A stretch of DNA of 31,211 nt from IMG/VR virus record IMGVR_UViG_2737471829_000009. One strand, 5' to 3'. Shown here in pieces: positions 1-31,211 of the stretch. The DNA comes from a virus. Taxonomy: Duplodnaviria > Heunggongvirae > Uroviricota > Caudoviricetes. A program made the translations under genes and the position numbers. The first letter of the stretch is position 1. Every line of letters starts with the position of its first letter. The notes beneath the pieces were generated by a model. That model saw only the letters and a program-made list of their open reading frames with translations, was not told where the DNA came from and ran no database searches.

Positions 1-222
1 TCACAGCCAGGGCATTTGATGCTGACCGGTCATCGTCGGGTGCGGTGGAGCCGGTACGACTTCTCCCGGCGAAACGATGAAACGCTCAACGGTTTCTGTC
101 GTGACAAAAGTACAACTGCAGTTGATGTTTGTGCACTGATGATACCGCTCTTTTGTGGTGTCAGAAAAATAGCGACTCGTGCGGGCATGGGCGGCGTAAT
201 GGCATTTCGGGCAATGAAACAT
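1..222 (-). CDS. ogr: Ogr late-gene transcriptional activator (C4 zinc finger)
   Basis: Translation MFHCPKCHYAAHARTSRYFSDTTKERYHQCTNINCSCTF has the C-x2-C-x22-C-x4-C pattern and closely resembles P2 Ogr as I recall it. Track ORF starts at a GTG; trimmed to the ATG at 222. Confidence 0.85.
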   Translation of the reverse strand: MFHCPKCHYAAHARTSRYFSDTTKERYHQCTNINCSCTFVTTETVERFIVSPGEVVPAPPHPTMTGQHQMPWL

Positions 223-297
223 GATGAGCACCTCTGAGCGTTTTCAATACAGTGATTTTACTTATTTTAATATTATAAAACAAACACATATAGTAAA
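223..297 (-). promoter_or_regulatory. AT-rich intergenic region upstream of ogr with a TATAAT-like element on the minus strand (putative ogr promoter)
   Basis: Short AT-rich spacer between the D stop and the ogr start; the minus strand reads GTTTTATAATATTAA. No clean -35 at canonical spacing. Confidence 0.25.
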
Positions 298-1467
298 TTA
301 CTGCGCTATTTCTTCGATCTCATACTCCACATCAGAAACCTTAACCTCAAGCTCTAAGCCCGTCGTGAAGCCACTCCCGTTAAGGCTGTGCACCACACGG
401 CTGATTATCCATGCCTGCTGGTCTATCACGCGCTTAAAGCCTTTCACGGCCACTGGTGTTTCAGGAAATAAATCAGCCCGGCCAGTGGCAAGCGTAATGG
501 AAAACTCCGCCACGCCTCGCTGTATCTTGTCCCACTTTGCCTGAGCCGCGCGCATGGCCTGCGCCTTTGTGGCATAGATGGTCGTGAGCTCAAGAACGTT
601 GTCCGACTCTCCGGCCATGTACTCACCTTCCCGCGCTTCCTGCTCTTTTTTCTTCTTAGCCTTTGTCGATGTTTTAGCGGCTTTCGGGTGCTGCAGCGCG
701 CGCAGGTGCTGCTCTTTGGGTTTACGTTTGAGCTTTACCTTTTGCTTTTGTGGCTTAGGGTCTCTGGTGTGTAGCCATTTCGCCGTCACGCCGGTGTAAG
801 CCTCCCGGTCTGCAATGGCGAACTGATGGCGGTCGCCGTCGCCACGCTCGACGGTCATTTGGGGGATCGGCTTACCACTGGCCGTCATCGCACTACCGGC
901 TTTCAGGAATAATAACTTCCCGGCTTTCACCGACACGGATGCACCGTTACGCTCAGCAAGGCGGGACAAAAACGCCGCATCAGATTCCTGCGTCTGGTCG
1001 ATATGGGGAATGGCGATAGCTTTCAGGGAGTCAGCAACACTGGCCGTCAGCTTATTACGCTGCGCGATGGTCTCCACAATCACCCCGAGCGTGGTGTCAT
1101 GCCATGACTGCTCGCGCCGCGAGTTCAGCGACCCGCGAAAATCCGCGCTACGTCCCCGGATGGTCAGCGTATCAGGCGCACCCCGGTGCTCGATTTCATC
1201 GACCGTGAAACTCCCCTTGTTGACCAGTGCGGAGCCCTGCCAGCCCAGCCACAGCGTCAGCGATGCCCCGCGCGGCGGCAACTCGACCAGCCCGTCGGTA
1301 TCATCGAGCGCAATATCGAGCTGGTCAGCCTCAAATCCGCGATTGTCGGTCATGGTCAGGCCGATGAGCCGGTCGCTGAAATTCTGCGTGATATCCTCCC
1401 CGTCCAGCGTGAGCATATACGCAGGGGCCACACGCGCCCCGGCCTGAATATTCATCCCTGTTATCAT
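298..1467 (-). CDS. D: Tail protein gpD (late control gene D family)
   Basis: About 390 aa, immediately downstream of U in the FETUD-type tail operon. Start set to the ATG at 1467, which has GGAGGG about 9 nt upstream and overlaps the U stop in an ATGA arrangement; the ATG at 1455 is an alternative. Confidence 0.8.
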   Translation of the reverse strand: MITGMNIQAGARVAPAYMLTLDGEDITQNFSDRLIGLTMTDNRGFEADQLDIALDDTDGLVELPPRGASLTLWLGWQGSALVNKGSFTVDEIEHRGAPDTLTIRGRSADFRGSLNSRREQSWHDTTLGVIVETIAQRNKLTASVADSLKAIAIPHIDQTQESDAAFLSRLAERNGASVSVKAGKLLFLKAGSAMTASGKPIPQMTVERGDGDRHQFAIADREAYTGVTAKWLHTRDPKPQKQKVKLKRKPKEQHLRALQHPKAAKTSTKAKKKKEQEAREGEYMAGESDNVLELTTIYATKAQAMRAAQAKWDKIQRGVAEFSITLATGRADLFPETPVAVKGFKRVIDQQAWIISRVVHSLNGSGFTTGLELEVKVSDVEYEIEEIAQ

Positions 1468-1928
1468 CCTGCCAGCCCTCCCGCCCATTCACTAGCTGAC
1501 GTGACCAGATTATCCGCCTGCGTTTTCAGGTCGCCATACATGGCCGCGAGCGACTCGTCGACGCGTTTCAGGGACAGACTGAACTCGATTTTTCTCGCTG
1601 CGCCGTCGCTGAAAAGCTCGGTGTGGTTGTGGGTCACTTTATCGATAATGTACATCCCGTGGATCATGCCGGTTCCGTCAATCAGCGGCCATGCGCGCCC
1701 CTCGTCGGCCATCAGCTCGATGGCCATCAGTGACAAACGTCCGCCGGTGATTTCAGGGTAAAGCGTTCCCGACAGCGTGCGCGAGGTTTCCCCCTCCCCG
1801 AGATACTGGTAAGCCGGTGGCTTTCCGATACGGTCATTTGACACCCACCGGTAGTCCTTCGAATACTGCATTGACTGATGCGGCAGGGTGCGCCGTTCAA
1901 ATACAAAAAAGCCCAGCACCATAAGCAT
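1464..1928 (-). CDS. U: Tail protein gpU
   Basis: 154-aa ORF between T and D, the position and size of P2 gpU; GAGGG RBS upstream of the ATG. Confidence 0.8.
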   Translation of the reverse strand: MLMVLGFFVFERRTLPHQSMQYSKDYRWVSNDRIGKPPAYQYLGEGETSRTLSGTLYPEITGGRLSLMAIELMADEGRAWPLIDGTGMIHGMYIIDKVTHNHTELFSDGAARKIEFSLSLKRVDESLAAMYGDLKTQADNLVTSASEWAGGLAG

Positions 1929-1941
1929 TTTTATCCATCCC

Positions 1942-4383
1942 TCAGTCGAGTCTCATACTGGATCGCTGGCGCGCACGTGTCTCGCGGTCAAGTTTGTCGA
2001 CGGCGTCACGAAGCTGGCGGTCAAGGTCACTGCCCGGCGCGACCCCGCCCTGCAGGTTGATGTTGTATTCGCTTTTGCTCTGGTCGATATAAGAACGGCC
2101 AGCGGGTGCGGTGACCGGCTGATACGCCTGATACCCGCCATAACCTGCAGTCGCAGGGATATACCCACCATTCGGGGACGCCTTATTCGCTTTCGCTGCG
2201 GTCTGGTCGAGGTCGCTGGATTCTTTTTTGATAACGCCGAGTTTTTCCAGCAGCCAGCCGACCTTGCCGCTCAGGCTGTTAAACATCTTGAGCGGCATCA
2301 TCAGCGCATCAGCCAGCGCCTGACCAAAAGTAACGCCGACATTTTTGCAACTGTTGAGCGTGTCCTGCGTGGCTTTCACCGGCGCAAGCAGGTCTTTAAA
2401 CCACTGGCAGACGACACCCAGCTTTTCAGCGATGGCATCAAACACCGGCGCAAGTGGGGTAAACATGTCCCCCACCGGTGCAAAGGCGGCTTTCAGTCCC
2501 TCCACCACGCCCGAGAAGAATGCACCGAGCGGCTCCCAGTATTTACGAATCAGCAACGCACCGGCCACCACTGCACCTGCTACCGCCAACACCGGCAGGC
2601 TGATTGCGCCAATGGCCGTGACTATCGCGCCGCCGACCGTACTGAAAACCACACCGAGCACGCCAGCCGCCGCAGTGATGGCATTAATCCCCATCACCAC
2701 CGGCCATGCGACAAGGCCAATCCCGCCCATCACACCAATCAGCGCCAGCGCACCCCCGACCACCACGCCGATAGTGGTCGCCAGCCCCTGATTTTTCTGG
2801 ATCCAGCCGTCGAGCCTGAGCACATATTGCGTGGCCGTCTGCGTCAGCTTACGCAGTGATCCCTCCTGCTGATCAAACAGGTCAGTGCCGACCGCCTCAT
2901 AGGCAGACTGAAACTCTTTAAAGTCGCCGCCGAGGTTATCCTGCATCACCTTAACCAGTTCCTCAGTCTTACCGTCCGAGGCTTTAAACGCGGCGGTGAG
3001 CTGGTCGAGCTTGCCGCCTGATGCAGCGGCCATCAGAACGGCGGCCGCCGAGCTGGCCTCTTCACCGAAAATGGTTTTCATGTATTCGGCTTTCTGACCC
3101 GTTCCGAGATTGTTTTTCTCAAAACTGCGCTGCATTTCCTTCAGGATGGAAAATATCGGACGCGTATTGCCTTTGCTATCTGACGTTTTAATGCCGAGCT
3201 CTTTGATGGCGTCGTACGCTTTACCGGTTGGTGCCTGCAGGCGACTCAGAACGGCACGGCTCCCTGTACCCGCCATCGAGCCGGTGATTTTAGAATCGTG
3301 CAGCGCCCCCACCATCGCGGCGGTTTCTTCAATACTCACCCCGGCATTTTTCGCCACCGGCGCGGCATAGGTCAGCGCATCGCTCATCCCGTCAAAGTCA
3401 GCGGCGGTTTTGTTCATCGTCATCGAGAGAACATCACCAATATGCGCGACTTTATCGTTAGAGAGCTGGAAAGCAGACTTCATGCCTGTCAGCAGCGCGG
3501 CGTTTTCTTCCATCGTGCGCTTGTTCGACAGCGCCATATTCAGCGTGACCGGCGTCGCCGCCTGAATAGCCGCCGCATCGCCGCCGCTTTTGGCGATGAT
3601 AATCTGCGCTCCCGCCGCATCATCGGCAGAGGCAGCGGTATTGTCACCGAGCTGGCGCGCCTGTTTACGCAGCGCCTGCATTTCGGGCGACTGTTTGTCG
3701 ACACCGAGCACTGCCTGCAGCTCAGAGTTTTTCTGTGCAAATTCATAACCCGGCGTCAGCAGCTTAACCCCGGCCATGGTTCCTGTTGTCGCAATACCGA
3801 CACCGGCCGCGCCAGCCGCCGCCATGCTACCGGCAAGCGATTTACCGGCCTGATATCGCTCTTTCACCCGGCTTAACTTTGCCTGCTGTGCGCTGACTTT
3901 CGCCAGTGCCTCACGCTGACGATTGAGCTGCGCAGTCGTCTCACTGATGCGCGATTTAAGCCCCCGCTCATCATTTGCCAGATTACGGGTATTAATCCCG
4001 ACAGCACCGAGCTCGCGTTGCTGGCGTTTAACAGACTCAGTGAGGCTGTTGTATTTCGTCTGCAGCCCGTCGGCGGCACGCTTTGCCGATTCAAGCACCT
4101 GCGCCTGCGCACGTGTCGGGCGCTCGGTGTTTTTAAACTGCGTGGCAAGGGCTTGCGCTTCCTGTTTCGCTTTCTCAAGCGAGTGACCAGTCACGGCAAG
4201 CTGTGCGCTGGCTTTGCGGAATCCGTCAATACGGGACGCCTGCGCGTTAAGTTCGCGCAGGCTTTTCTGTGAATTGCGGATATCACCAGACAGGGATTTG
4301 CTGGCGTTCTGAATCGCTTTAAGCGGGCGGCTTGCCCGGTCGACTGCGTTCAGCAGCACCTCGATTCTGACGTTATTGCTCAT
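1942..4383 (-). CDS. T: Tail tape measure protein gpT
   Basis: 813-aa protein with a coiled-coil N-terminal half, Gly/Ala-rich hydrophobic central segments, and position after E/E', typical of tape-measure proteins. Confidence 0.9.
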   Translation of the reverse strand: MSNNVRIEVLLNAVDRASRPLKAIQNASKSLSGDIRNSQKSLRELNAQASRIDGFRKASAQLAVTGHSLEKAKQEAQALATQFKNTERPTRAQAQVLESAKRAADGLQTKYNSLTESVKRQQRELGAVGINTRNLANDERGLKSRISETTAQLNRQREALAKVSAQQAKLSRVKERYQAGKSLAGSMAAAGAAGVGIATTGTMAGVKLLTPGYEFAQKNSELQAVLGVDKQSPEMQALRKQARQLGDNTAASADDAAGAQIIIAKSGGDAAAIQAATPVTLNMALSNKRTMEENAALLTGMKSAFQLSNDKVAHIGDVLSMTMNKTAADFDGMSDALTYAAPVAKNAGVSIEETAAMVGALHDSKITGSMAGTGSRAVLSRLQAPTGKAYDAIKELGIKTSDSKGNTRPIFSILKEMQRSFEKNNLGTGQKAEYMKTIFGEEASSAAAVLMAAASGGKLDQLTAAFKASDGKTEELVKVMQDNLGGDFKEFQSAYEAVGTDLFDQQEGSLRKLTQTATQYVLRLDGWIQKNQGLATTIGVVVGGALALIGVMGGIGLVAWPVVMGINAITAAAGVLGVVFSTVGGAIVTAIGAISLPVLAVAGAVVAGALLIRKYWEPLGAFFSGVVEGLKAAFAPVGDMFTPLAPVFDAIAEKLGVVCQWFKDLLAPVKATQDTLNSCKNVGVTFGQALADALMMPLKMFNSLSGKVGWLLEKLGVIKKESSDLDQTAAKANKASPNGGYIPATAGYGGYQAYQPVTAPAGRSYIDQSKSEYNINLQGGVAPGSDLDRQLRDAVDKLDRETRARQRSSMRLD

Positions 4384-4842
4384 GATGGCTTCCGCTTCGT
4401 TGCAGCGCCTTATCGCGCCATGTCAGGAGCTCGGTCACGCTCAGGGAATTTAGCTCTGATGGCGGCCAGTGGAAGATCACCGCGATATCCGCCATCAGGT
4501 CATCGACCGACAGTTTTTCCGGGAAGGTCAGCGACCCGAAGCCGGTGACAAAAAACCAACCACCTTACCGGCCAGCGAAATCAGGTCTGACGCATCCAGA
4601 CGCGCGAGTTCGTGCTCGGTCAGTGCCGGATACGTCATGCGCGGCAGCACCTTAATCAGCGCATCCACGTCGGAATTTGCCAGCGAGGCCAGTGATACCC
4701 CGCGCAGGGTTCCCGCGTTCGGTTTGGTTAGCGTGACCTGCTCAATTTTCTGTTCACCGCGCATCAGCGGGGTGTCAAAAATAACGATATTCGGAGTAAC
4801 GTTTTCAGTGTCAGCAACAGCAGTCTCATTGATATTTTTCAT
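4372..4842 (-). CDS. E+E': gpE+E' fusion made by programmed -1 ribosomal frameshift
   Basis: Minus-strand heptamer T_TTT_TTG at about 4549..4555 lies in the E zero frame (GGT TTT TTG). The -1 frame continues ...LTFPEKLSVDDLMADIAVIFHWPPSELNSLSVTELLTWRDKALQRSGSHHEQ*, resembling P2 E', and ends at about 4372, overlapping the T start. Confidence 0.7.
4528..4842 (-). CDS. E: Tail assembly chaperone gpE
   Basis: 104-aa ORF between FII and T; the zero frame ends ...VVGFLSPASGR, passing through a TTTTTTG slippery site. Confidence 0.85.
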   Translation of the reverse strand: MKNINETAVADTENVTPNIVIFDTPLMRGEQKIEQVTLTKPNAGTLRGVSLASLANSDVDALIKVLPRMTYPALTEHELARLDASDLISLAGKVVGFLSPASGR

Positions 4843-4896
4843 GCGAATTTCTCATCAGCGTAAGTGACCGGCCAGCCCCGCTGACCGGTTGAGGGA

Positions 4897-5415
4897 TTAC
4901 AGGCCAATTGCCTTGCGGTGCTCTGCCATACGGTCGACGCCGTCGACTTTCAGCACCATGTTGATCACGTCAATCTCGATGACTTCTTTGTCGTCGATCG
5001 TGAGCTGGTAATAGGCGCACTCGGTCGCCATTTTGGTCGTGCCGCTTTCTCCCTGCTTGTTTTCACCGCCGTCGTATTCTTTATGACGGCCACGCATCAC
5101 CACCTCGACGGCAGAAATCGCGCCGGTGTCGTCACGCTGATAAGAGCCGGTAAAACGCAGCGGAACGCTGTCAGCACCCGGCGAGGCGTACTGCGCCCAC
5201 AATTCAATGTCAGGCAGACCGCCGAGCGTCCACTCAAGCGACAGCGCATCGTCATCGAGGCCGAGGTCAACCGACACCGCTCCCGGCATCCCGCCGCCGC
5301 GATATTTCTCCAGCTTGCGGGTCAGTTTTGGCAGGGTGACGGATTCAACAACGCCCATATAACTCAGGCCATCGTTGAACATATTCAGGTATTTCAGTTT
5401 GCGGGGTAACGCCAT
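4897..5415 (-). CDS. FII: Tail tube protein FII
   Basis: 172-aa protein directly downstream of the sheath gene; N-terminus MALPRKLKYLNMFNDG... matches the P2 FII family as recalled. Confidence 0.9.
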   Translation of the reverse strand: MALPRKLKYLNMFNDGLSYMGVVESVTLPKLTRKLEKYRGGGMPGAVSVDLGLDDDALSLEWTLGGLPDIELWAQYASPGADSVPLRFTGSYQRDDTGAISAVEVVMRGRHKEYDGGENKQGESGTTKMATECAYYQLTIDDKEVIEIDVINMVLKVDGVDRMAEHRKAIGL

Positions 5416-5427
5416 GCTCAGAGCTCC

Positions 5428-6621
5428 TTAGCTGTTGACCGAGTCTGACAGGTTCGCCAGATAGGTATCGGTGATGCGCTGGCGCAGGGTCAGATTTTCC
5501 AGCGGCGGGACGGGGGTGTAGTCGTAATCGATATACAGTTTCCCCACTTTCAGGGTCGCGGTGTCGTTCGACTCCGGGTCGTACCAGCAGAAGCCGTCAA
5601 CGAGATAGCCGTTGGTTTTCAGCTCGCGGAATTTGGCATTGATACCGGAAACGATATCGCGAATGAGGGTCGGGGTAATGGGTTTATCCATCGCCCACGC
5701 GTGCGCCTCCGCCATCGTGTCGGCCAGCACCTGCGCGGTGCGGGTGTAGTTTTCAAACAGGAAAAGCGGATCATCCGAGCAGGTACGGTTTCCCCAAAAT
5801 TTGAAACCATCATTGCGGATAAGCGTAGTGACACCAGCCTGATTCAGCAGGTTGGCATCGGTCGCTGGTTCCTGCAAATCCCACGACACGGAGGCGCTGA
5901 CGCCGGTCACTCCGTTAACGCCAACGTTAGACAGGGTTTTGTGCCAGCCGATGGTCTGGTCGATTTTGGCACGCAGGCCGAGTGCGCGCGCCGTCACCCA
6001 GGCTGTTGCTGTCGTGTTCGCCGTGGTGTCCCATGCCAGAAAATCAGGGAAGATGACCATCAGCTCACGCTGGCTGAAATTCTCGCGGTAGTCGATGGCC
6101 TCAGAAATGGTTTTACAACCCCACGCGCTGACATAGCCAAAGGCGCGCAGGCTCTGACAGGTGGACGCGAGCGCGGTCGCCACTTCCTGCGAATCCAGCC
6201 CCGGCACGCCGAGAATACGAGGCTTAACGCCGGTGACGGTCTTCGCCGTCAGCAGGGCTTTCAGCCCGGTATATTTGCCGTTTTCGTCAGTGGTGCCGAT
6301 GATATTGGAAAGGGTTTGTTTGTGCGCCGCTTCGGGGTTCTCCGGATCTTCAATACCTTCGGCCACACGCACGGCCACGATGACCGGCTTGCACTGGTCA
6401 GCGATAGCCTGCAGGGACGTCGACAGCGTGCCCTGTTTACCGGCTTTACCGATAGCACTCTGCACGTTCGTAATAAGCACCGGCTCATTGAGGGGGAATG
6501 TTTTCTCGTCAGCATCGCTGGCCGTACAGACCATGCCGATGATGGCGGTTGAAACGGTGGAAATGGTGCGGACGCCATCGTTAATCTCGATGACCTCGAC
6601 GCCGTGATGATAGTCGCTCAT
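5428..6621 (-). CDS. FI: Contractile tail sheath protein FI
   Basis: Start trimmed to MSDYHHGVEVIEINDG... (ATG at 6621); the protein is near-colinear with P2 FI as recalled, including the C-terminal YIDYDYTPVPPLENLTLRQRITD motif. Confidence 0.9.
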   Translation of the reverse strand: MSDYHHGVEVIEINDGVRTISTVSTAIIGMVCTASDADEKTFPLNEPVLITNVQSAIGKAGKQGTLSTSLQAIADQCKPVIVAVRVAEGIEDPENPEAAHKQTLSNIIGTTDENGKYTGLKALLTAKTVTGVKPRILGVPGLDSQEVATALASTCQSLRAFGYVSAWGCKTISEAIDYRENFSQRELMVIFPDFLAWDTTANTTATAWVTARALGLRAKIDQTIGWHKTLSNVGVNGVTGVSASVSWDLQEPATDANLLNQAGVTTLIRNDGFKFWGNRTCSDDPLFLFENYTRTAQVLADTMAEAHAWAMDKPITPTLIRDIVSGINAKFRELKTNGYLVDGFCWYDPESNDTATLKVGKLYIDYDYTPVPPLENLTLRQRITDTYLANLSDSVNS

Positions 6622-6715
6622 CCGTTTAACTCCGTGGTTAAGGGGTGCAACTATTTTCTGTTGTGTAAGCGACAAGCGCGATGAAACGGCGTTGGCGGGG
6701 ATACAACACAACAAG

Positions 6716-6740
6716 CAAAAAGCCCTCCGGGTGGAGGGCT
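6716..6740 (-). terminator. Rho-independent terminator after the tail-fibre operon
   Basis: Plus strand reads AAAAAGCCCTCCGGGTGGAGGGCT: an 8-bp GC-rich stem (AGCCCTCC/GGAGGGCT) with a 4-nt loop, followed on the minus strand by a T-run, directly 3' of G. Confidence 0.6.
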
Positions 6741-6744
6741 TGCG

Positions 6745-7167
6745 TTATTCAGGTACTGACGGCAGGTCGATTAACAACGGGTCGGAGGTATCAACCCGGC
6801 TCAGAAGCACGGTGTATGTCTCCCATTGCTCAAGCCGTTTTACCTCTTCGGGGGTGGCAATCCCCAGCTTAACCGCACGGCTCAGGGGAGCAATGATAAT
6901 TTCCGCCTCCTGCATGAGTGCTGTCCTCTGAGTTTCAAATTGCTCGATGAGAACGTCAGGATCAGGAGGGGGAATATCGGCCCATGTGGGAAGGCCATTA
7001 TCACCTGCAGCACGATACTTCCCTGATGGTGTTACTTTCGCTGCGAATTCATCATAAACACTGTCTTCCACCTGAATAGCGTCATCAGGCCAGTCTTCAA
7101 TATAGTCGGGAAGATACTGCATCGGATAAAATGTGTTTCGTTTAGCGCTATAGCAATAATTACCCAT
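6745..7167 (-). CDS. G: Tail fibre assembly chaperone
   Basis: 140-aa ORF immediately downstream of tail fibre gene H, the position and size of a P2 gpG-type chaperone. Confidence 0.8.
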   Translation of the reverse strand: MGNYCYSAKRNTFYPMQYLPDYIEDWPDDAIQVEDSVYDEFAAKVTPSGKYRAAGDNGLPTWADIPPPDPDVLIEQFETQRTALMQEAEIIIAPLSRAVKLGIATPEEVKRLEQWETYTVLLSRVDTSDPLLIDLPSVPE

Positions 7168-7170
7168 ATA

Positions 7171-8877: not shown

Positions 8878-8888
8878 TGTGTTCTCAC

Positions 8889-10320: not shown

Positions 10321-10325
10321 AACGT

Positions 10326-17609: not shown

Positions 17610-17612
17610 GGC

Positions 17613-18680: not shown

Positions 18681-18741
18681 TGTTATTCCTGTTTTTCTAA
18701 AAAGGGGCATCAGGCCGGGTGACGCGCACCCGGCAGGTCTG

Positions 18742-21532: not shown

Positions 21533-21533
21533 C

Positions 21534-22544: not shown

Positions 22545-22551
22545 ATTTAAA

Positions 22552-22577
22552 AGCCATCATAGATGGCTTTTTTTTTC
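22552..22577 (+). terminator. Rho-independent terminator after Q (probably bidirectional)
   Basis: AGCCATC-ATA-GATGGCT hairpin followed by a T9 run on the plus strand, 8 nt after the Q stop; it sits between convergent Q and the cargo operon. Confidence 0.65.
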
Positions 22578-24491: not shown

Positions 24492-24510
24492 ATGCTATCC
24501 CCGCCACGCC
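24492..24510 (-). other. cos-like cohesive-end site
   Basis: Minus strand reads GGCGTGGCGGGGATAGCAT, one or two mismatches from the P2/186 19-nt cohesive ends as I remember them (GGCG[A/T]GGCGGGGAAAGCA[C/T]). It lies in a GC-rich stretch with no convincing ORF. Confidence 0.45.
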
Positions 24511-24792
24511 TGCCCGCTTCAAGGGTCGGTTTTAATGCAGTTGCATGACCACTCAGGATCCGCGCCAGCTCTGGCGGCGCACGAACAGAACGGGCATCCC
24601 CGACGCATGCAAAACAATGCACCTGTTGCATGCACGGCTAAAAAACGGGAAATTCGCGGAAAAATGGCATAATAAAACCGGCTTTAATCGTGCCGGTTGG
24701 GGGCGGTCTCTACGGGACAGGCTAACGCCTCGCGTGGCTCGTTGTTCAACCCCGCTGGCACTGAAAACAAGTTTCAGCACCGGCGGCGTTTG

Positions 24793-25032
24793 CTAAGGTC
24801 GACGCGGTGGTGGCTTCGCCATATTTGGTGGCCGAAACACCTCAATTTTTGGATTGCTGATATCGCTGTATTTGCGGTGATTATCCCGGACGACACCGGC
24901 ACACCCGACCAGTTCGTCAGGTGTCAGATTCTCGTTAATCATAATTTGTTGCAGGCGATGCACGACGGCCATCAGCTTAATGTTTTGCGTTGAATGTACC
25001 GGCGGGACTGGCATCATTCGCATATGACTCAT
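24793..25032 (-). CDS. Hypothetical small protein
   Basis: ATG at about 25032 overlaps the stop of the upstream ASCH-like gene (ATGA coupling); no recognisable domain. Weak call. Confidence 0.35.
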   Translation of the reverse strand: MSHMRMMPVPPVHSTQNIKLMAVVHRLQQIMINENLTPDELVGCAGVVRDNHRKYSDISNPKIEVFRPPNMAKPPPRRP

Positions 25033-25493
25033 TTTAACCACCCATTTTTTTTAGCATATGCGACCATCTTGTCGGAATATTGCCAGACTCCATCATCAGC
25101 GACGTAAGCCCCACCCGAAACGCCGTTAAGCGTTTCGTATCCAATAGCCAGCCCTAACGGGTGTAGAATTTCGCGCTTAATTCTGAAAACAAGCCCTTTC
25201 TCGCTTAACTCTTTCCAGTTCATTAGGGATATACCGCATTGGACATCTGGCATCATTAACTGAAAACTCAGCATCACATAATCTTCCGCCCATTCAGCTA
25301 AATCAGTAACGTTTGTCACCCTCACTGATACACGTTTCCCGGTATATCCGTTTACCGGTTCCCATTCATGCAACCCGAGAATATCACCGCTAGAATAATC
25401 GCGGTCATTGAGTCGAAATTCAGCACATTTTTCCCGAGATATCACCGCGTTAAAATGCTCAGGTGCAATTTTTAACTGATGGATTTTGCTCAT
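25029..25493 (-). CDS. ASCH/PUA-like (DUF3850-like) domain protein at the P2 orf91 position
   Basis: N-terminal KIHQLKIAPEHFNAVISREKCAEFRLNDRDYSSGDIL resembles the ASCH/DUF3850 pattern as recalled. ATG at 25493 overlaps the A stop. Confidence 0.5.
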   Translation of the reverse strand: MSKIHQLKIAPEHFNAVISREKCAEFRLNDRDYSSGDILGLHEWEPVNGYTGKRVSVRVTNVTDLAEWAEDYVMLSFQLMMPDVQCGISLMNWKELSEKGLVFRIKREILHPLGLAIGYETLNGVSGGAYVADDGVWQYSDKMVAYAKKNGWLK

Positions 25494-27784
25494 TAACGCC
25501 ACTCCTTATGCATTGAGAATCCCGGCCACTCATCAGCAGCCACGTATTTGAATTTTTTATCGCCATAAATCACCGTTGCCCCACGCGCCAGCGCTTCAAG
25601 CTCCCACCGTTCCGGGGTAATGCCCTCCTGAGCCAAATCGAAACGAATTTTCGCTAAGCGATCCCTTTCTGGTTTTGTCATCCTGGCTGATGGCGCTTGC
25701 TCGCCCGTTTTGAGTGGCTCATTGCTTCTTTGCTGGCGATTTTTGCGAGGGATGCCAGTTTTTAACGCGCCATTAAGCACCTTCATGACGTCTGGCTCAT
25801 TCCAGCCGATAACCCCGCGCTCAATCAGATTTAACACCGCTGCGGCTTGCTCAGACGGTGTGGGTGTCATAACTGGAGTATCACCGCCGGTGAGCTTTCC
25901 ACAGTTATTGACAGGACTCCGAGGCGCGGCAGAGCCGCTTTTTAAGGTCAAAGGCTCAACGGCAAAAATCTTTGGAACAATGCGCCATTCGGCTGTACGG
26001 GTTACATGTATGCGGCTCGCCCCGAGGTGAGGGGCATAAATGCCGACCACTCTCTCGATATCTTCCTCATATTCGTTGACCTCATCCGTCACCTTACGGG
26101 CGACCCTGACGGCCTGCGCATCACGCGGCATGTTTGCCCCACCCTGCGCGATGATATACAGGTCAAATTCACCTTCATCAGCAGCAGCCCGGACAGCCTC
26201 GACCCGGTCGTCAAATTCACTGGCGATACTCACGCCGCGCGGCAGCTTGCGCAGTTCGCGGTAAGCGCCCATTGTCGGCAGGCCAATTGGTTTAAACTGC
26301 GGGATGCGCCATGTAGACGCCCATGCGGTTACGGCTGCGGCGGTATCTTTCAGAGGCTTTCCGGTGTCGTGGTCGAGCTGGCCGTCGAGTGCGTAGCCGT
26401 CGATATTTTTGGCAATGTATTTAGCGATATAACCCGCCGCGCCGCCCTGATTAAGATGACGTGACTCAAAGCGCTGTTTTGCCGCACCCTTTTCGTGCCC
26501 GTCCTCTTTGAGAGCATAACGACGCATAATTTCGTTAATAGCTTTACGCTGACCGGGTTTGCAAAACAGCATCATGTGCCAGTGTGGCGTCCCGTCGTGG
26601 TGCGGTTCGACAACACGCATCCCGTAAACCTCTAAATCGTTATCTTTGAAAGCGGTGCGTATCAGGCTCCAGATTCGGCACAGATAGCGCTGGCCGTCTT
26701 TGGGGGTAAATGCGGTTTCATTCCAGCCATGATTGAGCTGCACAGTTTTGTTTTCACCTTTGCCGACCTGTCGGGTCGGGTGATACTTCGATGGCGTGGT
26801 CAGCGTGATAAACATCCCCACGTCACCAACGCTGGCCGCGTAGCGTTCAATCCCGGCGATAGTGTTCATCAGTTCCATACGCCGTATTTCAGGATTAGAA
26901 ATACTCCCCATTACCTTACTGATGAGGTCGATACGTTCGCCGGTGACTTTGTTTTCCAACTCGCAGGATTTCAGGTATTCGAGATTAGCCAGTCGGCGCG
27001 CGTGCACATCGCGGATCGCCATTTTACTTGCGTAAGGTGAGCGGTCTTTGTTGACTTCACCAGCCGCAATAAGCAGCGCCTCGCGCCAGCGCATCCGCTG
27101 CGCCTTGAGCTGGCTGCCCCACCACTCATCTTTTATCAGACGGGAAATAGCAGAAAATGCCATGCGGATCGTCATCTGACCCTTACGGTATTTTTTCCAG
27201 TACATCGGGGTGAAGTTAAAAGCGCGAGCAATACCGGCCACCTGACCGTATAAATGAGCCTGCGCCTCATCGGTGAATAAAGTGTCTTTCCCGCCGTGCG
27301 CCTCCTCCCATGCGTCGCTTAACTCTTCGTATTTGCTCCAGAGTTGAGAAGCAATTCTGGCCGCAAATTTCTTAAGCTCTTTGTCATTCATATCCGGCAG
27401 GCACGCATACTGGTCACGCTCGGACAAAAAACCAATCGAGGCGGATTCATTCATCCCGCACAGCTCATTAACACGCTCAAGACGCGGCAGCAGCTTGCGC
27501 TCAAACGTGTTTTTGAGGAAATACAGCCCACCCAAAGGGCTCTTTGTGCGGCGGATGAAGTTATAACGCGCGGTAAACAGCGTTTGCAGGAAAAACGGCA
27601 GGCGATCAATCCGGTTTAAAACACCTTGCACCTGACGGAGTTCGGCACGTGTAAGGGGTCTGTCGCGGCCAACTGCCTCGCGGGATTTATTCCACGGATA
27701 AGCACCGACGAAATTATCACCGGTGCTTTTGGGTAGTGGCGGAGGTGGCGAGGGGGCAACGCGCCCCCGAGTTTCAACGGCCAT
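25493..27784 (-). CDS. A: Rolling-circle replication initiator / endonuclease gpA
   Basis: Start trimmed to MAVETRGRVAPSPPPP... (ATG at 27784); long colinear match to P2 gpA as recalled. Confidence 0.9.
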   Translation of the reverse strand: MAVETRGRVAPSPPPPLPKSTGDNFVGAYPWNKSREAVGRDRPLTRAELRQVQGVLNRIDRLPFFLQTLFTARYNFIRRTKSPLGGLYFLKNTFERKLLPRLERVNELCGMNESASIGFLSERDQYACLPDMNDKELKKFAARIASQLWSKYEELSDAWEEAHGGKDTLFTDEAQAHLYGQVAGIARAFNFTPMYWKKYRKGQMTIRMAFSAISRLIKDEWWGSQLKAQRMRWREALLIAAGEVNKDRSPYASKMAIRDVHARRLANLEYLKSCELENKVTGERIDLISKVMGSISNPEIRRMELMNTIAGIERYAASVGDVGMFITLTTPSKYHPTRQVGKGENKTVQLNHGWNETAFTPKDGQRYLCRIWSLIRTAFKDNDLEVYGMRVVEPHHDGTPHWHMMLFCKPGQRKAINEIMRRYALKEDGHEKGAAKQRFESRHLNQGGAAGYIAKYIAKNIDGYALDGQLDHDTGKPLKDTAAAVTAWASTWRIPQFKPIGLPTMGAYRELRKLPRGVSIASEFDDRVEAVRAAADEGEFDLYIIAQGGANMPRDAQAVRVARKVTDEVNEYEEDIERVVGIYAPHLGASRIHVTRTAEWRIVPKIFAVEPLTLKSGSAAPRSPVNNCGKLTGGDTPVMTPTPSEQAAAVLNLIERGVIGWNEPDVMKVLNGALKTGIPRKNRQQRSNEPLKTGEQAPSARMTKPERDRLAKIRFDLAQEGITPERWELEALARGATVIYGDKKFKYVAADEWPGFSMHKEWR

Positions 27785-28049
27785 CTGCAGCAAACGCAGT
27801 CTGACATTGCTGACCAATGCGCTCGACCTGCTCGCCAATGTCCGCAAAACTGACCGCCTCACCGGTCAGAATGCCATGTAATATCAGACCAGATACGAGT
27901 CTGGAAATTGTTGGATAATAGCCAATAACACCGAGCCACTCTTTACCGGCGCTCTTTCCTGATTTTGCGGTTTTCTTTTCCTGCAAAATAAATTGAAACT
28001 GGTCACTAGTGACGACGAAACGGTCGCCCACCTCAATATAAATTGACAT
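27774..28049 (-). CDS. Hypothetical early-operon protein
   Basis: 91-aa ORF with an ATG start, overlapping the A start by about 10 nt and coupled to the upstream ORF. Confidence 0.5.
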   Translation of the reverse strand: MSIYIEVGDRFVVTSDQFQFILQEKKTAKSGKSAGKEWLGVIGYYPTISRLVSGLILHGILTGEAVSFADIGEQVERIGQQCQTAFAADGR

Positions 28050-28348
28050 TATTTACCACCTTTCCGATTTAATTTTTTTAGCTCACACGCGCAATATGTG
28101 GATTGTTCAGCCATGAATTTTATTAATTCATCCGTCGTGGTTATTTTTTTGCGATAAATAGCACGTTTGACAATTAGGTCGACAACATCAGAAAACAGAT
28201 TTAACTCATTCGAATAAATAGCGATAACTGACCCAACCATCAAGCCAGATTCTTTATCGCTTTTGAGGTCAGACAGAGATAAATCACCATTTTTGAGAAC
28301 GGCAACTTTTAACCAGCCATTGAGAATCACAGATTTCAGCACAGACAT
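28049..28348 (-). CDS. Hypothetical early-operon protein (AT-rich)
   Basis: 99-aa ORF with an ATG start and a one-base stop/start overlap with the downstream ORF; visibly more AT-rich than its neighbours. Confidence 0.5.
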   Translation of the reverse strand: MSVLKSVILNGWLKVAVLKNGDLSLSDLKSDKESGLMVGSVIAIYSNELNLFSDVVDLIVKRAIYRKKITTTDELIKFMAEQSTYCACELKKLNRKGGK

Positions 28349-28572
28349 TAAACAGCCTCCCCTCGGGCGAGACCTGCGTTATGAAGTACCGTTGATTCCT
28401 GGCTGAGTAACTCGACAATCTCAACACGCCCCAACTCCTGCGTAACGATATGTTGAATCAGTTTATCCAGATGAGATGAGAATATAGTCGCCGCGTCGGC
28501 CTGCGCTTCTGCTCTGGCCTGCTGAAGCAATAAAGAAAAATTGCTGTTTTGCTTTTCCGTTCCTGTAAGCAT
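28348..28572 (-). CDS. Hypothetical early-operon protein
   Basis: Trimmed to the ATG at 28572 (MLTGTEKQN...), which has a GGAGA RBS about 8 nt upstream. Confidence 0.45.
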
Positions 28573-28635
28573 GACTTTCTCCAGACAAAAAGAAGTCCCG
28601 CACAATCAAGTGCGTTTAACATTCGTATTATTTAA

Positions 28636-29136
28636 TTAATGCAAATATTGCTCAGGCTTTACCGATGTTAATATCGTCGGAGCATACTCAAACAGGCTAA
28701 ATAACTCACGCAAAGCACGAAATAATCTTTCACGCCAATAACATGATTCTTCATTAATACGCCAGTAAGGCTGATTAAATTCAACCTCACTTAACCCCGC
28801 GTGTAAAAATAAAGAGCGTCGCTGACCTACTGTTAGAAAACTAATATATGCAGACTCACTTGAGCCAACCTGACGACGTTTTGAAAATGCAGCACGTAGC
28901 TCGTCGATAGCGCACACCAGACGCTCCCGGTCTACATCGTTCATTTCCTCAAGACGCATCGTCGCATGACGCTGTTTTAATTGAGCATGAAAACAGACCG
29001 TCAGGCGGTCGCGTTCCATCATTTGATTATAGAAATCGCAGCTATCATGCCAGCGCGGCTCCGCCAGATGTTTTCCAATAACGAGGCGCAGGGATTGTGG
29101 CTGTTTTTGAACCAACGCAAGAGTCATTACCGCCAT
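28636..29136 (-). CDS. B: Replication protein gpB
   Basis: 166-aa protein between cox and A, the size and position of P2 B; the MAVMTLALVQKQPQSLRLVIGKHLAEPRWHD... N-terminus matches as recalled. Confidence 0.8.
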   Translation of the reverse strand: MAVMTLALVQKQPQSLRLVIGKHLAEPRWHDSCDFYNQMMERDRLTVCFHAQLKQRHATMRLEEMNDVDRERLVCAIDELRAAFSKRRQVGSSESAYISFLTVGQRRSLFLHAGLSEVEFNQPYWRINEESCYWRERLFRALRELFSLFEYAPTILTSVKPEQYLH

Positions 29137-29303
29137 AACGTTAACCCTCTGGATTTAATGAAGCGTTTAGCCATGGCAAAAAATCCCGGCTTACTGGTGC
29201 GAATGATGATGCCTTTACGTCCCTTACCATGAGTAATCTTGAACGTAATCAGGCGTGGGCTTTCACTACGCAGTAACTGAGCAATGCAACGAGGTTCATT
29301 CAT
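29127..29303 (-). CDS. Small basic early protein (P2 orf78-like position)
   Basis: Trimmed to the ATG at 29303, immediately after the cox stop; 58 aa, Lys/Arg-rich. Confidence 0.4.
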   Translation of the reverse strand: MNEPRCIAQLLRSESPRLITFKITHGKGRKGIIIRTSKPGFFAMAKRFIKSRGLTLWR

Positions 29304-29313
29304 GAGTTTTCCC

Positions 29314-29670
29314 CTAAGCAACCGCGCGACCATGAGCCGACTTGCTGTAACTAATACGGTTTTTCCAGTCATGCCACTCGGTTGGAGCATCCTGCACCAA
29401 TTGCGCAGCATATTTATCCCACTCACGGCGGTTTACCCACAACTCAGCTTTACCACCTGGCTTTAAAGGATCCGTCATGTAAAAAGCAGGCAATTTGCCA
29501 GACCTTGCCATTTCAGCCACAGCACGTGGAGTTTTGCCTATATAGAGGGCAAAACCTTCTTTCGATAAGAGGTCTGATGGTTTATCAGCTAGCTGTAATG
29601 AAACGCGCCCTTTTTTCTGATCGGACACATCCTGTCTATACTCATCATTAATTTCTGATTCACTATTCAA
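29314..29670 (-). CDS. cox: Cox-like excisionase / early-promoter regulator
   Basis: First gene of the early operon, divergent from C; FALYIGKTPRAVAEMARSGKLPAFYMTDP resembles the P2 Cox HTH region as recalled. The N-terminal extent is uncertain. Confidence 0.7.
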   Translation of the reverse strand: MNSESEINDEYRQDVSDQKKGRVSLQLADKPSDLLSKEGFALYIGKTPRAVAEMARSGKLPAFYMTDPLKPGGKAELWVNRREWDKYAAQLVQDAPTEWHDWKNRISYSKSAHGRAVA

Positions 29671-29700
29671 TTTGATATCCTCACATTGGCATCAGCGAAC

Positions 29701-29730
29701 TAGAGTGACCTAGAGTCACTTAGAGCTGAT
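29701..29730. promoter_or_regulatory. Immunity operator: three direct repeats at 10-bp spacing between cox and C
   Basis: TAGAGTGACC / TAGAGTCACT / TAGAGCTGAT in tandem, with an embedded inverted repeat AGTGAC-CTAGA-GTCACT, in the 103-bp gap between the divergent Pe and Pc promoters. Confidence 0.5.
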
Positions 29731-29773
29731 AAATCATATCAACTCACGAAAATAATACGAGGTTAGACAATTT

Positions 29774-30073
29774 ATGTCAACGCAGACAAGCGAGCGATTA
29801 AAGCTCATCCGTGAATCTGAGCGCCTGAAAATGAAGGAAGCGGCTGAATTAGCTGGCATCAATTACACCACGTACGCAGGTTATGAATCAGGTAAGGCCA
29901 TGATGTCTCTGGAAAATGCCAAGAAGTTTTTTAAGGTTCAGAGGTTCAGAAAATATCGCGATTGGTTCATGTTTGATGAGATTGATCCCGAAGCCGGACA
30001 GATAGCTCCGGCACTCGCACACTCTGGGCAAGATTTAACAACCTCGCAGCACTCAGGCCAAAAGACTGGTTAA
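29774..30073 (+). CDS. C: Immunity repressor C (HTH)
   Basis: 99-aa protein, the same length as P2 C, with an N-terminal HTH-like segment (MKEAAELAGINYTTYAGYESG), divergent from cox and upstream of int. Confidence 0.8.
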   Translation: MSTQTSERLKLIRESERLKMKEAAELAGINYTTYAGYESGKAMMSLENAKKFFKVQRFRKYRDWFMFDEIDPEAGQIAPALAHSGQDLTTSQHSGQKTG

Positions 30074-30215
30074 CCATTCACCGCGCACATGTTTATTACA
30101 AAATTTGTTTACTTGTTAACAAGTATGGCGAGCAACGTAACCACTGGAGACTAAAACCGCAAAAAGTAGCGTCAAAGATACAAAAGAAGAATTTATACAC
30201 CGCATGGAGAATCTT

Positions 30216-31211
30216 ATGAGCATTAAGAAACTCGATGACGGTCGATATGAAGTGGACGTAAGGCCGCAGGGTGCAGACGGAAAACGCATCCGGCGCAAAT
30301 TTAACACAAAGGGCGAGGCGCAAGCCTTTGAACGCCATGTACTGGTTAATTTTCACAATAAAGAGTGGATTGAAAAACCAGCAGACCGAAGAAGAATTAC
30401 CGAACTTTTAGAACGTTGGTGGATATATCACGGCAAGATGCACCCCCGCGGGGATATCGAAAGGGGTCGACTTACAACAATAGCAGCAAAGTTTGAGGAA
30501 ATGGGTATAACCAGAGCTGATCAACTTACCAAAAAATCGATAACCGATTACCGGGTGTTGATGATGAATGAAGGGTTGAAACCTGCCAGTGTAAACCGAC
30601 ATATGGCAATGATGAGCGGCGTATTCACAAAACTGATTGATGCTGAGGAATACAACTGCCCTAATCCATTCAGGGATATCAAGCGGTTGAAAGAGGCTTC
30701 TTTCGAAATGTCTTTTTTGTCAGGCGAGGAAATTGAAGCTCTGTTAGCCCGCCTGGATGGCGACGAGCGCAGCGCCGTTCTAGTTTGTTTGTCAACCGGC
30801 GGCAGGTGGGGTGAGGTTTCTGACTTAAAAGCCGAGCACATCATAAATCAGATGGTTACATTCATGAAAACCAAAAACGGGAAGCACAGGACAATCCCCC
30901 TTTCGCTTGACCTAATAAAGCGAATCAAGAAGAAAAACTCAGGCAGGCTCTTTAACGCCAGTTACTACAAAGTACGTACCGCCTTAAAAGAGGTTAAACC
31001 CGAATTACCAGATGGACAGGCCGTACATGTTTTGAGGCACACATTTGCCACACATTTTATAATGAATGGAGGTAACATAATCACATTGCAGCGCATATTG
31101 GGTCATTCAAACATACAGCAAACTATGACCTACGCACATTTCGCGCCGGATTTCCTGCAAGATGCAGTGACACTAAATCCGGTGTCTAGAATGTCCATAA
31201 TGCGTCCATAA
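30216..31211 (+). CDS. int: Tyrosine integrase (P2 Int family)
   Basis: Start trimmed to MSIKKLDDGRYEVDVRP (GGAGA RBS). C-terminal HVLRHTFATHF...LGHSNIQQTMTYAHF carries the tyrosine-recombinase signature. The stop codon is the last 3 nt of the window. Confidence 0.9.
   Translation: MSIKKLDDGRYEVDVRPQGADGKRIRRKFNTKGEAQAFERHVLVNFHNKEWIEKPADRRRITELLERWWIYHGKMHPRGDIERGRLTTIAAKFEEMGITRADQLTKKSITDYRVLMMNEGLKPASVNRHMAMMSGVFTKLIDAEEYNCPNPFRDIKRLKEASFEMSFLSGEEIEALLARLDGDERSAVLVCLSTGGRWGEVSDLKAEHIINQMVTFMKTKNGKHRTIPLSLDLIKRIKKKNSGRLFNASYYKVRTALKEVKPELPDGQAVHVLRHTFATHFIMNGGNIITLQRILGHSNIQQTMTYAHFAPDFLQDAVTLNPVSRMSIMRP

Follow-up and report, generated by a model that had tools for sequence, protein, structure and literature searches.

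The stretch of DNA analysed here (31,211 nt, referred to as the window) is very probably a complete temperate prophage of E. coli, which belongs to the P2 type (Peduoviridae, P2 regulatory class), resides in pflA, and is unlikely to be released by mitomycin C. All DNA between ogr and int is phage DNA or phage cargo in P2 gene order. The ogr gene occupies positions 1-222 on the minus strand, its TGA stop codon being bases 1-3, and int occupies positions 30216-31211 on the plus strand (alternative ATG at 30204), its TAA stop codon being the final three bases. The two genes point away from each other towards the ends, which is the orientation that a P2 prophage should have, given the location of attP between ogr and int in P2. 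That both ends fall on stop codons is best explained by cutting on gene coordinates; the window ends are no biological boundary. A sequence-only reading had proposed one P2-like prophage extending from ogr to int with both genes complete, and this was confirmed.

The same reading had placed the att sites and host junctions just beyond both ends. The junctions were read in other assemblies, which are identical to the window over approximately 4.5 kb (left) and 11 kb (right): contigs L031 and L034 have 0 mismatches to its left 4467 nt, and L005 and L006 have 0 mismatches to its right 10996 nt. Contigs L007 and L008 likewise have 0 mismatches over the 6860 and 5311 nt of the right end that they cover. 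An 11-bp att core, CAGTTATTGGT, was found on both sides, 113 nt beyond ogr and 92 nt beyond int, followed by pflB on one side and pflA on the other, so that the proposed placement held and the flanks were free of further phage genes. The core corresponds to codons 2-5 of pflA, the host locus, and the prophage is therefore located between pflB and pflA. The sequence of attL is ATGTCAGTTATTGGT followed by GAC, that of attR is AAGCCAGTTATTGGT followed by CGC, and attB in K-12 is ATGTCAGTTATTGGTCGC. The prophage DNA outside the window thus comprises, besides the att cores, the segment past ogr (ogr terminator, the Int arm repeats TGTGGTCA and AGTGGACG, and an A/T-rich stretch) and the segment past int (Cox-box-like repeats and a hairpin). 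Counting these approximately 0.2 kb, the full prophage has a length of about 31.4 kb. Its integrase is a tyrosine integrase of 331 aa with 52% identity to P2 Int, and the catalytic R/H-x-x-R/H/Y residues are kept. The last 20 or so nucleotides of int contain the P'-arm-type repeats ATGTCCA and GCGTCCA (reverse complement TGGACAT and TGGACGC); the consensus of P2-type Int arms is tgTGGaCa (PMC3448106). Of 5426 complete E. coli genomes, 405 (about 7.5%) have the pflA site occupied.

Every essential gene of P2 (NC_001895) is an open reading frame in the window. In a tblastn search with 42 P2 proteins, 35 gave single unbroken matches with 37-84% identity; no such match was found in the window for Y, K, orf82, orf30, fun(Z), tin, and old. 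The structural genes Q P O N M L X R S V W J I H G FI FII E T U D follow the P2 order, and their products match P2 over the full length with 46-84% identity (60-80% for the tail proteins of the F operon, each a single match, and 67-77% for the head proteins L, M, N, and O, all of them open), with the exception of H and G. For H only the N-terminal 246 of the 669 residues of P2 H were matched (77%), the C-terminal part being different, and for G the match is limited to the C-terminal 62 of 175 residues (53%). The E' frame is open as far as the start of T, and the slippery site GGTTTTTTG at about 4547-4555 is in the same place as in P2, which supports a programmed -1 frameshift (E and E+E'). Ogr (73 aa) has an Ogr/Delta zinc finger and shares 66% of its residues with P2 Ogr and 74% with 186 B; a protein identical to it matched Pfam Ogr_Delta. 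Eight TGT-N10-ACA dyads occur in the window, three of them in the three expected late-promoter gaps, and these are candidate Ogr targets. The cohesive-end sequence of cos is GGCGTGGCGGGGATAGCAT, which is identical to that of P2 at 16 of 19 positions (3 differences), and the cos region matches P2 at 42 of 47 and 24 of 28 positions. On the A side of cos approximately 48 nt of flank are conserved, whereas on the Q side homology ends about 10 nt past cos. The active-site tyrosines of A are kept (YIAKY motif), and the layout of the switch region parallels Pe/Pc of P2. All 43 genes that PGAP annotated in the 99.7%-identical prophage of strain S42 have open reading frames here; this holds also for H and A, the two genes that sibling copies have in broken form. 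The absence of pseudogenes that had been claimed is thus borne out: there are no frameshifts, and no open reading frame is broken.

Table. Features of the window, in order of position (ogr and int are given in the text).
Feature	Position	Strand	Remarks
D	298-1467	-	F operon tail gene (operon 298-6621); tblastn to P2
U	1464-1928	-	F operon
T	1942-4383	-	F operon
E'	4373-4495	-	F operon
E	4528-4842	-	F operon
FII	4897-5415	-	F operon
FI	5428-6621	-	F operon
TGT-N10-ACA dyad	6659-6674		candidate Ogr-dependent late promoter element, upstream of FI
G	6745-7167	-	V operon (6745-11314)
H	7171-8877	-	V operon; intact, 568 aa
I	8889-9419	-	V operon
J	9412-10320	-	V operon
W	10326-10676	-	V operon
V	10673-11314	-	V operon
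TGT-N10-ACA dyad	11363-11378		upstream of V
543-aa protein (cargo)	11739-13370	+	P2 orf30 position (between S and V); region GC 34%
S	13490-13936	-	
R	13929-14396	-	
lysC	14359-14604	-	
lysB	14492-14920	-	
lysA	14902-15333	-	
Lysozyme	15330-15842	-	Phage_lysozyme endolysin
Holin	15826-16047	-	HP1 family
X	16038-16241	-	
L	16241-16747	-	head
M	16854-17609	-	head
N	17613-18680	-	head
O	18742-19596	-	head
TGT-N10-ACA dyad	19678-19693		divergent O/P promoter gap
P	19763-21532	+	terminase ATPase, 83% identical to P2 P
Q	21534-22544	+	portal, 74% identical to P2 Q
Hairpin	22549-22571		bidirectional terminator-like, between Q and cargo pair
HEPN-motif protein (cargo)	22576-23184	-	202 aa (RRGSVAH); partner of DUF262 protein
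DUF262/GmrSD_N protein (cargo)	23185-24324	-	379 aa; Q-cos gap; region GC 35%
cos	24492-24510	-	19-nt cohesive-end sequence; P2 cos comparison
74-aa ORF	24793-25017	-	early operon (24793-29670); matches PHROG of unknown function
DUF3850 (orf91-like)	25029-25493	-	early operon
A	25493-27784	-	early operon
ori region	25877-25961		inside A; 93% identical to P2
orf83-like	27774-28049	-	early operon
orf81-like	28049-28348	-	early operon
orf80-like	28348-28572	-	early operon
B	28636-29136	-	early operon
orf78-like	29127-29303	-	early operon
cox	29314-29628/29670	-	early operon; Pfam Phage_Cox 8e-29
Three (C/T)TAGAG boxes	29700, 29710, 29720		10 bp phase; switch region 29700-29780
Early promoter Pe	29780-29752	-	TTGACA-17-TATTAT; promoter scan 11/12 on identical contig L005
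C	29774-30073	+	immunity repressor, 99 aa, 48% identical to P2 C

The prophage shares with P2 the gene order and operon layout (int/C/cox/B/A through Q P O N M L X ... D ogr), cos, ori, the tyrosines of A, the E/E' frameshift site, a 99-aa C, Cox, and an attP between ogr and int with Int arm repeats that overlap the 3' end of int. It differs from P2, which integrates at loc attB sites, in its target in pflA and the divergence of Int, in an HP1-type holin and a Phage_lysozyme endolysin that stand in place of Y and K, and in the C-terminus of H and in G. It lacks old, tin, fun(Z), orf30, and orf82 of P2 and carries other cargo; the cargo at the Q/A junction is on the Q side of cos, whereas that of P2 is on the A side. 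Its length falls short of that of the P2 genome by about 2.2 kb, and its late genes have 56-57% GC. An integrase with 86% identity is encoded by Peduovirus P24E6b and P24A7b, Escherichia phages D8, 11W, 12W, and pro483, and Yersinia phage vB_YpM_46. Joining the left and right flanks yielded the attP of such sequenced phages: its alignment with the ogr-int interval of P24E6b extends from one end to the other, and terminator, arm repeats, core GTCACCAATAACTGAC, hairpin, leader ORF, and TAGAG-type boxes are collinear. DNA identity to the P24E6b group, which was deposited as phage genomes while the window is a prophage copy, is approximately 78% over a third of the early region only, and cargo and tail-fibre modules differ. 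Viable relatives in a phage collection are in the same size class (29.2-32.8 kb). Much closer are RefSeq prophages of E. coli S42 and the bovine OkiPb strains: their DNA is 99.6-99.7% identical along the entire length, they lie at the same site between pflB and pflA, and they carry the same cargo. The S42 copy is separated from the window by about 100 substitutions and has T instead of C at position -2 of the attR core. The likeness to ECA29 of Pectobacterium atrosepticum consists in the pflA target known from the published description, according to which integration disrupts pflA (PMC13492144, table 3).

The immunity module is of the P2 type, with a 99-aa C and a divergent cox. C matched phrog_147 (2e-36) and, in Pfam, HTH_3 only; there is no peptidase domain. 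Phage 186 and the P2-like prophage of E. coli HS, which is of the 186 type, have late structural, lysis, and Ogr/B modules homologous to those of the window, and HS also has the HP1-type holin and lysozyme. Both integrate elsewhere (ileY tRNA; rcdA/ybjL) and possess CI (approximately 190 aa), Apl, CII, Fil, and a LexA-controlled tum, all of which the window lacks. With tblastn, no match in the window was better than E = 0.17 for 186 CI, Apl, CII, Fil, and Dhr, or than E = 0.56 for Tum/Orf97, and the small ORFs scanned between A and cos gave no match to DinI-like Pfam models. LexA-box-like matches are not enriched in the window (7 found, 8.2 expected), and the scan gave none that is intergenic upstream of a candidate antirepressor gene. 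Induction by mitomycin C is therefore unlikely, judged from a P2-type repressor and the lack of an SOS-linked antirepressor. Non-inducibility is here argued from the absence of known modules, and small ORFs, for example 24793-25017, may include a novel antirepressor. Going by the biology of P2, lysogeny would be held by C acting at Pe, and the lytic switch would need Cox, which would also serve as excisionase at the TAGAG-type boxes. A would nick ori for rolling-circle replication, Ogr would switch on four late operons, and the terminase would cut at cos. Since C would be uncoupled from RecA/LexA, release is expected to be only spontaneous at low frequency or to follow derepression by a P4-type antirepressor, and not to follow mitomycin C.

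Two AT-rich cargo loci, which occupy known accessory-gene slots of P2, look like anti-phage defence genes, and they may be expressed from the lysogen, as the sequence-only reading had assumed. The DUF262 protein of the pair between Q and cos (about 1.9 kb) matched Pfam GmrSD_N (1e-26) and, in PADLOC, NsnA (2.9e-76) and PD-T4-2_A (8.9e-39), that is, the A component of PD-T4-2/Menshen-like defence. Its 202-aa partner gave weak matches to HEPN RiboL-PSP (1.7e-4, below the Pfam cut-off) and PD-T4-2_B (2.5e-3), and the PADLOC search of the pair found neither NsnB nor NsnC. Ahead of the DUF262 gene the coding strand gave no promoter-like match, and the weak matches that precede the 543-aa gene do not outnumber those in shuffled sequence. 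The N-terminal part of the 543-aa protein is rich in beta structure, and its C-terminal domain is helical and contains an invariant R479-x5-H485 motif. Neither this protein nor 29 aligned homologues matched a Pfam or PADLOC family, including the ApeA N-terminal and HEPN_Apea models; just one homologue bears the UniRef name 'ApeA N-terminal domain-containing'. The 543-aa protein is an unclassified HEPN-motif protein, whose C-terminal domain may have a HEPN fold (R-x4-6-H motif). Its family fills the accessory slot between S and V in P2-like prophages as distant as Burkholderia.

The sequence-only reading had gone on from an intact prophage to one that is 'therefore probably inducible' by mitomycin C, as 186 or lambda would be, and this step did not stand. 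Intactness of all genes, together with strong mitomycin induction of some P2-like prophages such as that of E. coli HS, speaks for it; gene intactness is, however, uninformative on the induction pathway, and the inducible examples are of the 186 type, with the CI, CII, Fil, and LexA-controlled tum that are missing here. In HS, induction needed tum and a cleavable LexA (PMC11195241), and 186 has been stated to be SOS-inducible and P2 not, a 99-aa repressor being a mark of the P2 type (PMC9826266). With such a repressor, devoid of a peptidase domain, and LexA boxes at chance level, SOS control is improbable. Somewhat less improbable, though still unlikely, is that the prophage looks intact but is defective, a cryptic or domesticated element kept for its cargo that forms no infectious particles. 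Near-identical copies in other strains already show decay (a frameshift in H of S42, a split A gene in contig L003), cos and its Q-side flank diverge from P2, and the cargo pair has been inserted between Q and cos. In the window copy, however, all essential ORFs are intact, as are all cis sites tested, the catalytic residues and arm repeats of the integrase system are conserved, and sequenced phage genomes exist with the same attP and closely related Int. Activity is read from sequence here, and intact ORFs may still hide inactivating missense changes.

That there is no integrated prophage at all, and that the window represents a free phage, a plasmid-like genome, or an assembly artefact linearised at att, would agree with the lack of host DNA and with ends at gene boundaries. 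This is highly improbable, given that the same attL and attR with pflB and pflA occur in more than 10 independent assemblies of identical or 99.7%-identical sequence, among them the complete chromosomes of S42 and OkiPb strains, and that a single 535-kb contig carries both junctions. A complete prophage of the P2 regulatory class in pflA thus remains the preferred reading. Within a phage family that is well known, it is nothing out of the ordinary. Few prophages of E. coli are better known or more common than the P2-like ones; several RefSeq genomes already carry a PGAP annotation of this element, and phage genomes with its type of integrase and attP have been deposited. The finding as stated therefore matters little. 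What is gained are the true ends and the host target, which are needed for the design of excision PCR or curing. A negative result with mitomycin C is probable and would be no evidence that the prophage is dead. The unclassified family of the 543-aa protein deserves a separate look, as does the in-frame replacement of the 5' end of pflA by phage DNA.

PflA is the activase needed by pyruvate formate-lyase. At attL, the native start of pflA precedes a 9-codon stub and a bidirectional terminator, and the native promoter, ribosome-binding site, and start codon are left 31 kb away. At the other end, 31 nt past the int stop codon, the attP of this integrase clade contains a conserved ATG with a 20-codon leader (MSNL..CN..EN......K), which continues in frame through the att core into codon 2 of pflA. 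Eight lysogens were read (seven strains, six species), and in each of them the phage ATG and 20 codons are fused in frame to pflA, with leader position, length, and frame fixed. No terminator was found between int and the leader, and a PflA fusion would therefore come from the Pc-C-int transcript. It is thus conceivable, though rather doubtful, that integration rewires pflA such that PflA is made as an N-terminally extended fusion from this lysogenic transcript. The fixed geometry of the leader and the occupancy of the site are compatible with rewiring, and could equally reflect constraints on attP spacing. If rewiring does occur, a central step of anaerobic metabolism would be tied to the repressor operon of a prophage.

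The window begins with the bases TCA, the reverse complement of the TGA stop codon of ogr, and ends with TAA, the stop codon of int. Both genes are the complete outermost genes, as the sequence-only reading had stated; that each end falls exactly on a stop codon indicates that gene coordinates were used to cut the window. In the P2 annotation, the ogr and int ends flank the attP core at distances of about 100 nt and about 80 nt, respectively, so that an integrated P2-type genome is expected to terminate in outward-reading ogr and int genes. A form of Int starting at an upstream ATG (335 aa) was also looked up, for which there is no record; the recorded form comprises 331 aa.

Because the window does not contain host DNA, contigs encoding exactly its Int and D proteins were sought. 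For the right end, contigs L005 and L006 are identical to the window over 10,996 nt, and L007 and L008 over the parts that they cover; for the left end, contigs L031 and L034 are identical to the left 4,467 nt. On the ogr side, 113 nt of phage DNA are followed by the core, the pflB-pflA intergenic region and pflB. The 113-nt stretch contains a terminator (AAAGCCCCGCAATTGCGGGAGCTTT), two arm-type repeats (TGTGGTCA and AGTGGACG) and an A/T-rich stretch; repeats of the P2-type arms have the consensus tgTGGaCa (PMC3448106). On the int side, 92 nt of phage DNA are followed by the core, pflA from codon 6 onwards, ycaK, ycaN, and a further host region. The empty site in K-12 reads ATGTCAGTTATTGGTCGC, attL reads ATGTCAGTTATTGGT followed by GAC, and attR reads AAGCCAGTTATTGGT followed by CGC. 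The block common to attL and attR is CAGTTATTGGT with a length of 11 bp (13 bp in E. coli S42). In the source record, the left flank would be the reverse complement of GCCAAAAGAAAAGCCCCGCAATTGCGGGAGC...GAAAATGTC/ACCAATAACTG/ACATTGCGGTG, followed by pflB, and the right flank would be ACCAGAGCTACTTAGAGCG...ACCAAGC/CAGTTATTGGT/CGCATTCAC (pflA).

The flanks that were read contain no further phage genes outside the junctions. When joined, they form a sequence that aligns over its full length with the ogr-int interval of Peduovirus P24E6b (attP at L041 601-817); this phage genome has been deposited, and its Int is 86% identical. The prediction that the att sites and host junctions lie just outside both ends was thus right: attL, attR, pflB, and pflA are all found in the identical contigs, and the reconstructed attP matches that of P24E6b. 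The actual length of the element is about 31.4 kb, and its type of integrase and attP is already represented among deposited phage genomes. Neither a tRNA gene nor an Rfam family was detected by scanning the window; a tRNA or tmRNA gene is thereby excluded as the attachment site. A similar integrase-pflA junction exists in 405 of 5,426 complete E. coli genomes, at an identity of at least 99% in 11 cases and of about 87% in approximately 394. Furthermore, an Int that is 77-86% identical adjoins pflA in E. albertii, three Scandinavium species, and Pseudescherichia vulneris. Our literature search found no paper joining pflA and a P2-like prophage; the sole statement found on pflA and a prophage is that of a review from 2026, according to which prophage ECA29 of Pectobacterium atrosepticum disrupts pflA (PMC13492144).

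For the assessment of gene content, 42 P2 proteins were compared with the window by means of tblastn. Almost every query yielded one full-length, unbroken match, namely the structural and lysis proteins Q, P, O, N, M, L, X, LysA, LysB, LysC, R, S, V, W, J, I, FI, FII, E, T, U, and D, as well as Ogr, Int, C, Cox, Orf78, B, Orf80, Orf81, Orf83, A, and Orf91. For H, the match is confined to the N-terminal part, and for G to the C-terminal part. The P2 gene order is kept, with the orientation flipped relative to the P2 map. P2 Y and K are without a tblastn match, and a holin and an endolysin gene occupy their position. None of the dispensable P2 genes orf82, orf30, fun(Z), tin, and old was matched in the window.

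Coordinates of annotated features in the window
Feature	Position	Strand	Remarks
ogr	1-222	-	73 aa, outward-reading
Endolysin (Phage_lysozyme)	15330-15842		at P2 Y/K position
Holin (HP1 family)	15826-16047		at P2 Y/K position
DUF262 gene and gene of 202-aa protein	22576-24324	-	between portal gene Q and cos, extreme left end of packaged genome
cos	24492-24510		GGCGTGGCGGGGATAGCAT; 16/19 identical to P2; flank of ~48 nt conserved
int	30216-31211	+	331 aa, outward-reading

An independent test of intactness was based on the PGAP-annotated, 99.7% identical prophage of E. coli S42 (RefSeq). All 43 of its 43 genes correspond to open frames in the window, and the lengths are equal with the sole exception of a DUF3850 protein, which stops five residues earlier. 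The cis elements are likewise in place. P2 homology on the Q side of cos ends about 10 nt beyond the cohesive end, the ori region inside A is 93% identical to that of P2, and the two active-site tyrosines of A (YIAKY) and the catalytic residues of Int are conserved. The slippery sequence of E/E' is GGTTTTTTG. TGT-N10-ACA dyads occur in all three gaps that correspond to Ogr-dependent promoters of P2; three of the eight such dyads of the window are located in these gaps, which together amount to about 440 nt. TGT-N12-ACA, a spacing ascribed to P2 late promoters, has no match in these gaps, all three of which are fitted by N10; annotated P2 late-promoter sites likewise depart from strict N12 spacing. 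A near-consensus early promoter overlaps the start of C, as it does in P2. Three (C/T)TAGAG boxes with 10-bp phasing are located between cox and C (window 29700-29729), and three similar boxes (CAGAGC, TTAGAGC, and TTAGAGC) are found past the int stop, ahead of the leader ATG of pflA (L005 11000-11027). Since Cox of P2 binds both at Pc and in attP, these motifs are candidate Cox boxes. Next to cos, a small ORF (24545-24796, +) matches phrog_17882 (8e-31), a PHROG of unknown function; it overlaps with the conserved flank of cos, and may be no gene but a stretch of conserved DNA. The reading of an intact prophage is borne out by every available sequence test, and the window is an ordinary P2-type prophage.

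Two AT-rich islands with 34-35% GC, compared to 56-57% for the late genes, occupy known P2 accessory positions, and both cargo loci look like defence cargo. The DUF262/GmrSD_N protein matches PADLOC NsnA (3e-76) and PD-T4-2_A (9e-39). It is followed by the 202-aa protein, which contains an RRGSVAH motif and whose HEPN and PD-T4-2_B matches are weak. This island is closed by a bidirectional hairpin adjoining Q. The pair lies on the Q side of cos, whereas P2 old and tin lie on the opposite side. A Foldseek comparison of the 543-aa cargo protein with the PDB yielded no match at E <= 0.001. Upstream of its gene, the promoter scan gave weak matches that do not exceed the shuffled expectation; upstream of the DUF262 gene, there was none on the coding strand.

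A megablast comparison of the window with phage records gave Peduoviridae matches only. Enterobacter phage ENT4 ranks first, with 83.5% identity across 76% of the first 25 kb; P2-like phages of Salmonella, Yersinia, Klebsiella, and Escherichia come next. The late genes (1-11314 and 13490-22544), for which ENT4 is nearest, have a GC content well above that of E. coli. The early and immunity part (24492-31211) has 44-50% GC, and its nearest relatives are Escherichia and Yersinia P2-like phages. This mosaic suggests an exchange of modules between lineages of different hosts. An identical 73-aa Ogr and tail genes of about 92% identity are encoded in other E. coli P2-like prophages (L009-L012, L015, L016), which adjoin yegQ, upstream of baeSR-mdt, and are not inserted at pflA; the late module thus travels with different integrases. 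A 99.6-99.7% identical prophage is present in 11 complete E. coli genomes, and its ends are 100% identical in several draft assemblies. Near-identical sibling prophages are already decaying: the tail-fibre gene H is frameshifted in the S42 copy (L017 9960-11666), and sibling L003 (5278-7602) has its replication gene A split in two. Both genes are whole in the window.

As the core corresponds to pflA codons 2-5, integration takes away the promoter, the ribosome-binding site, and the ATG of pflA. At attL (L031 4468-4600), these native elements now precede a 9-codon stub (MSVIGDIFQ and a stop codon) and the bidirectional ogr terminator. At attR (L005 10997-11096), a phage ATG 31 nt past the int stop and 20 codons (MSNLNHCNTTENPAASGATK) are in frame with pflA codon 2; PGAP annotates the PflA of the lysogen with 265 aa. 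The peptide of the predicted leader-PflA fusion would be MSNLNHCNTTENPAASGATKPVIGR. The ATG, its distance, the length, and the frame are constant in all eight lysogens read (seven strains, six species), which belong to E. coli, E. albertii, three Scandinavium species, and Pseudescherichia. In the free phage P24E6b, the leader ORF continues through the core and ends with ...KSVIGDIF and a stop codon. The hairpin between int and the leader has a T-run on the opposite strand only, so that there is no obvious stop to int transcripts entering pflA. It is conceivable, if somewhat doubtful, that the leader is a maintained device for gene repair and rewiring; the arrangement may instead be a by-product of spacing constraints in attP. 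Evidence from codon positions that the leader peptide is under selection was discarded, because the five distinct sequences are too few independent ones.

The immunity module is of the P2 type: it consists of a Cox protein and a 99-aa HTH repressor that shares 48% identity with P2 C. Searching the window by tblastn gave no homologue of 186 CI, Apl, CII, Fil, Dhr, Tum, or Orf97 (best E 0.17 to 1.9); among all early, SOS, and immunity proteins of 186, only the common Ogr/B, Int, A, and Orf83 matched. The LexA-box pattern with at most one mismatch was found seven times in the window, which is at chance level (8.2 expected), and none of these matches is located in an intergenic region upstream of any candidate antirepressor gene. 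No DinI-like domain was found in the small ORFs that were scanned in the interval from A to cos. One of the small ORFs (24793-25017, -) matches phrog_11386 (6e-29), a PHROG of unknown function, and is the only unassigned ORF of the early operon that could conceal an unrecognised regulator. Bertani's work on abortive induction of P2 is said to have shown that even inactivation of C yields poor excision, because the prophage expresses int poorly. SOS induction is a property of phage 186 but not of P2, and the P2 type is marked by a repressor of 99 aa (PMC9826266). The P2-like prophage of E. coli HS, which is inducible by mitomycin, requires tum and a cleavable LexA (PMC11195241); in contrast to the prophage studied here, it is of the 186 type with CI, CII, Fil, and a DinI-like protein. 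A location of the HS prophage at pflA was ruled out, as its site lies between rcdA and ybjL. The P2-type immunity, the missing 186-type regulators, the chance level of LexA boxes, and the literature do not support the view that the prophage is probably inducible. Non-inducible phages depend on spontaneous induction (PMC7708051), and a P4-type antirepressor offers a route to derepression (PMC2995052). This prophage would be expected to be released spontaneously at a low level, or to be derepressed by a P4-type antirepressor, and not to respond to mitomycin C with a burst.
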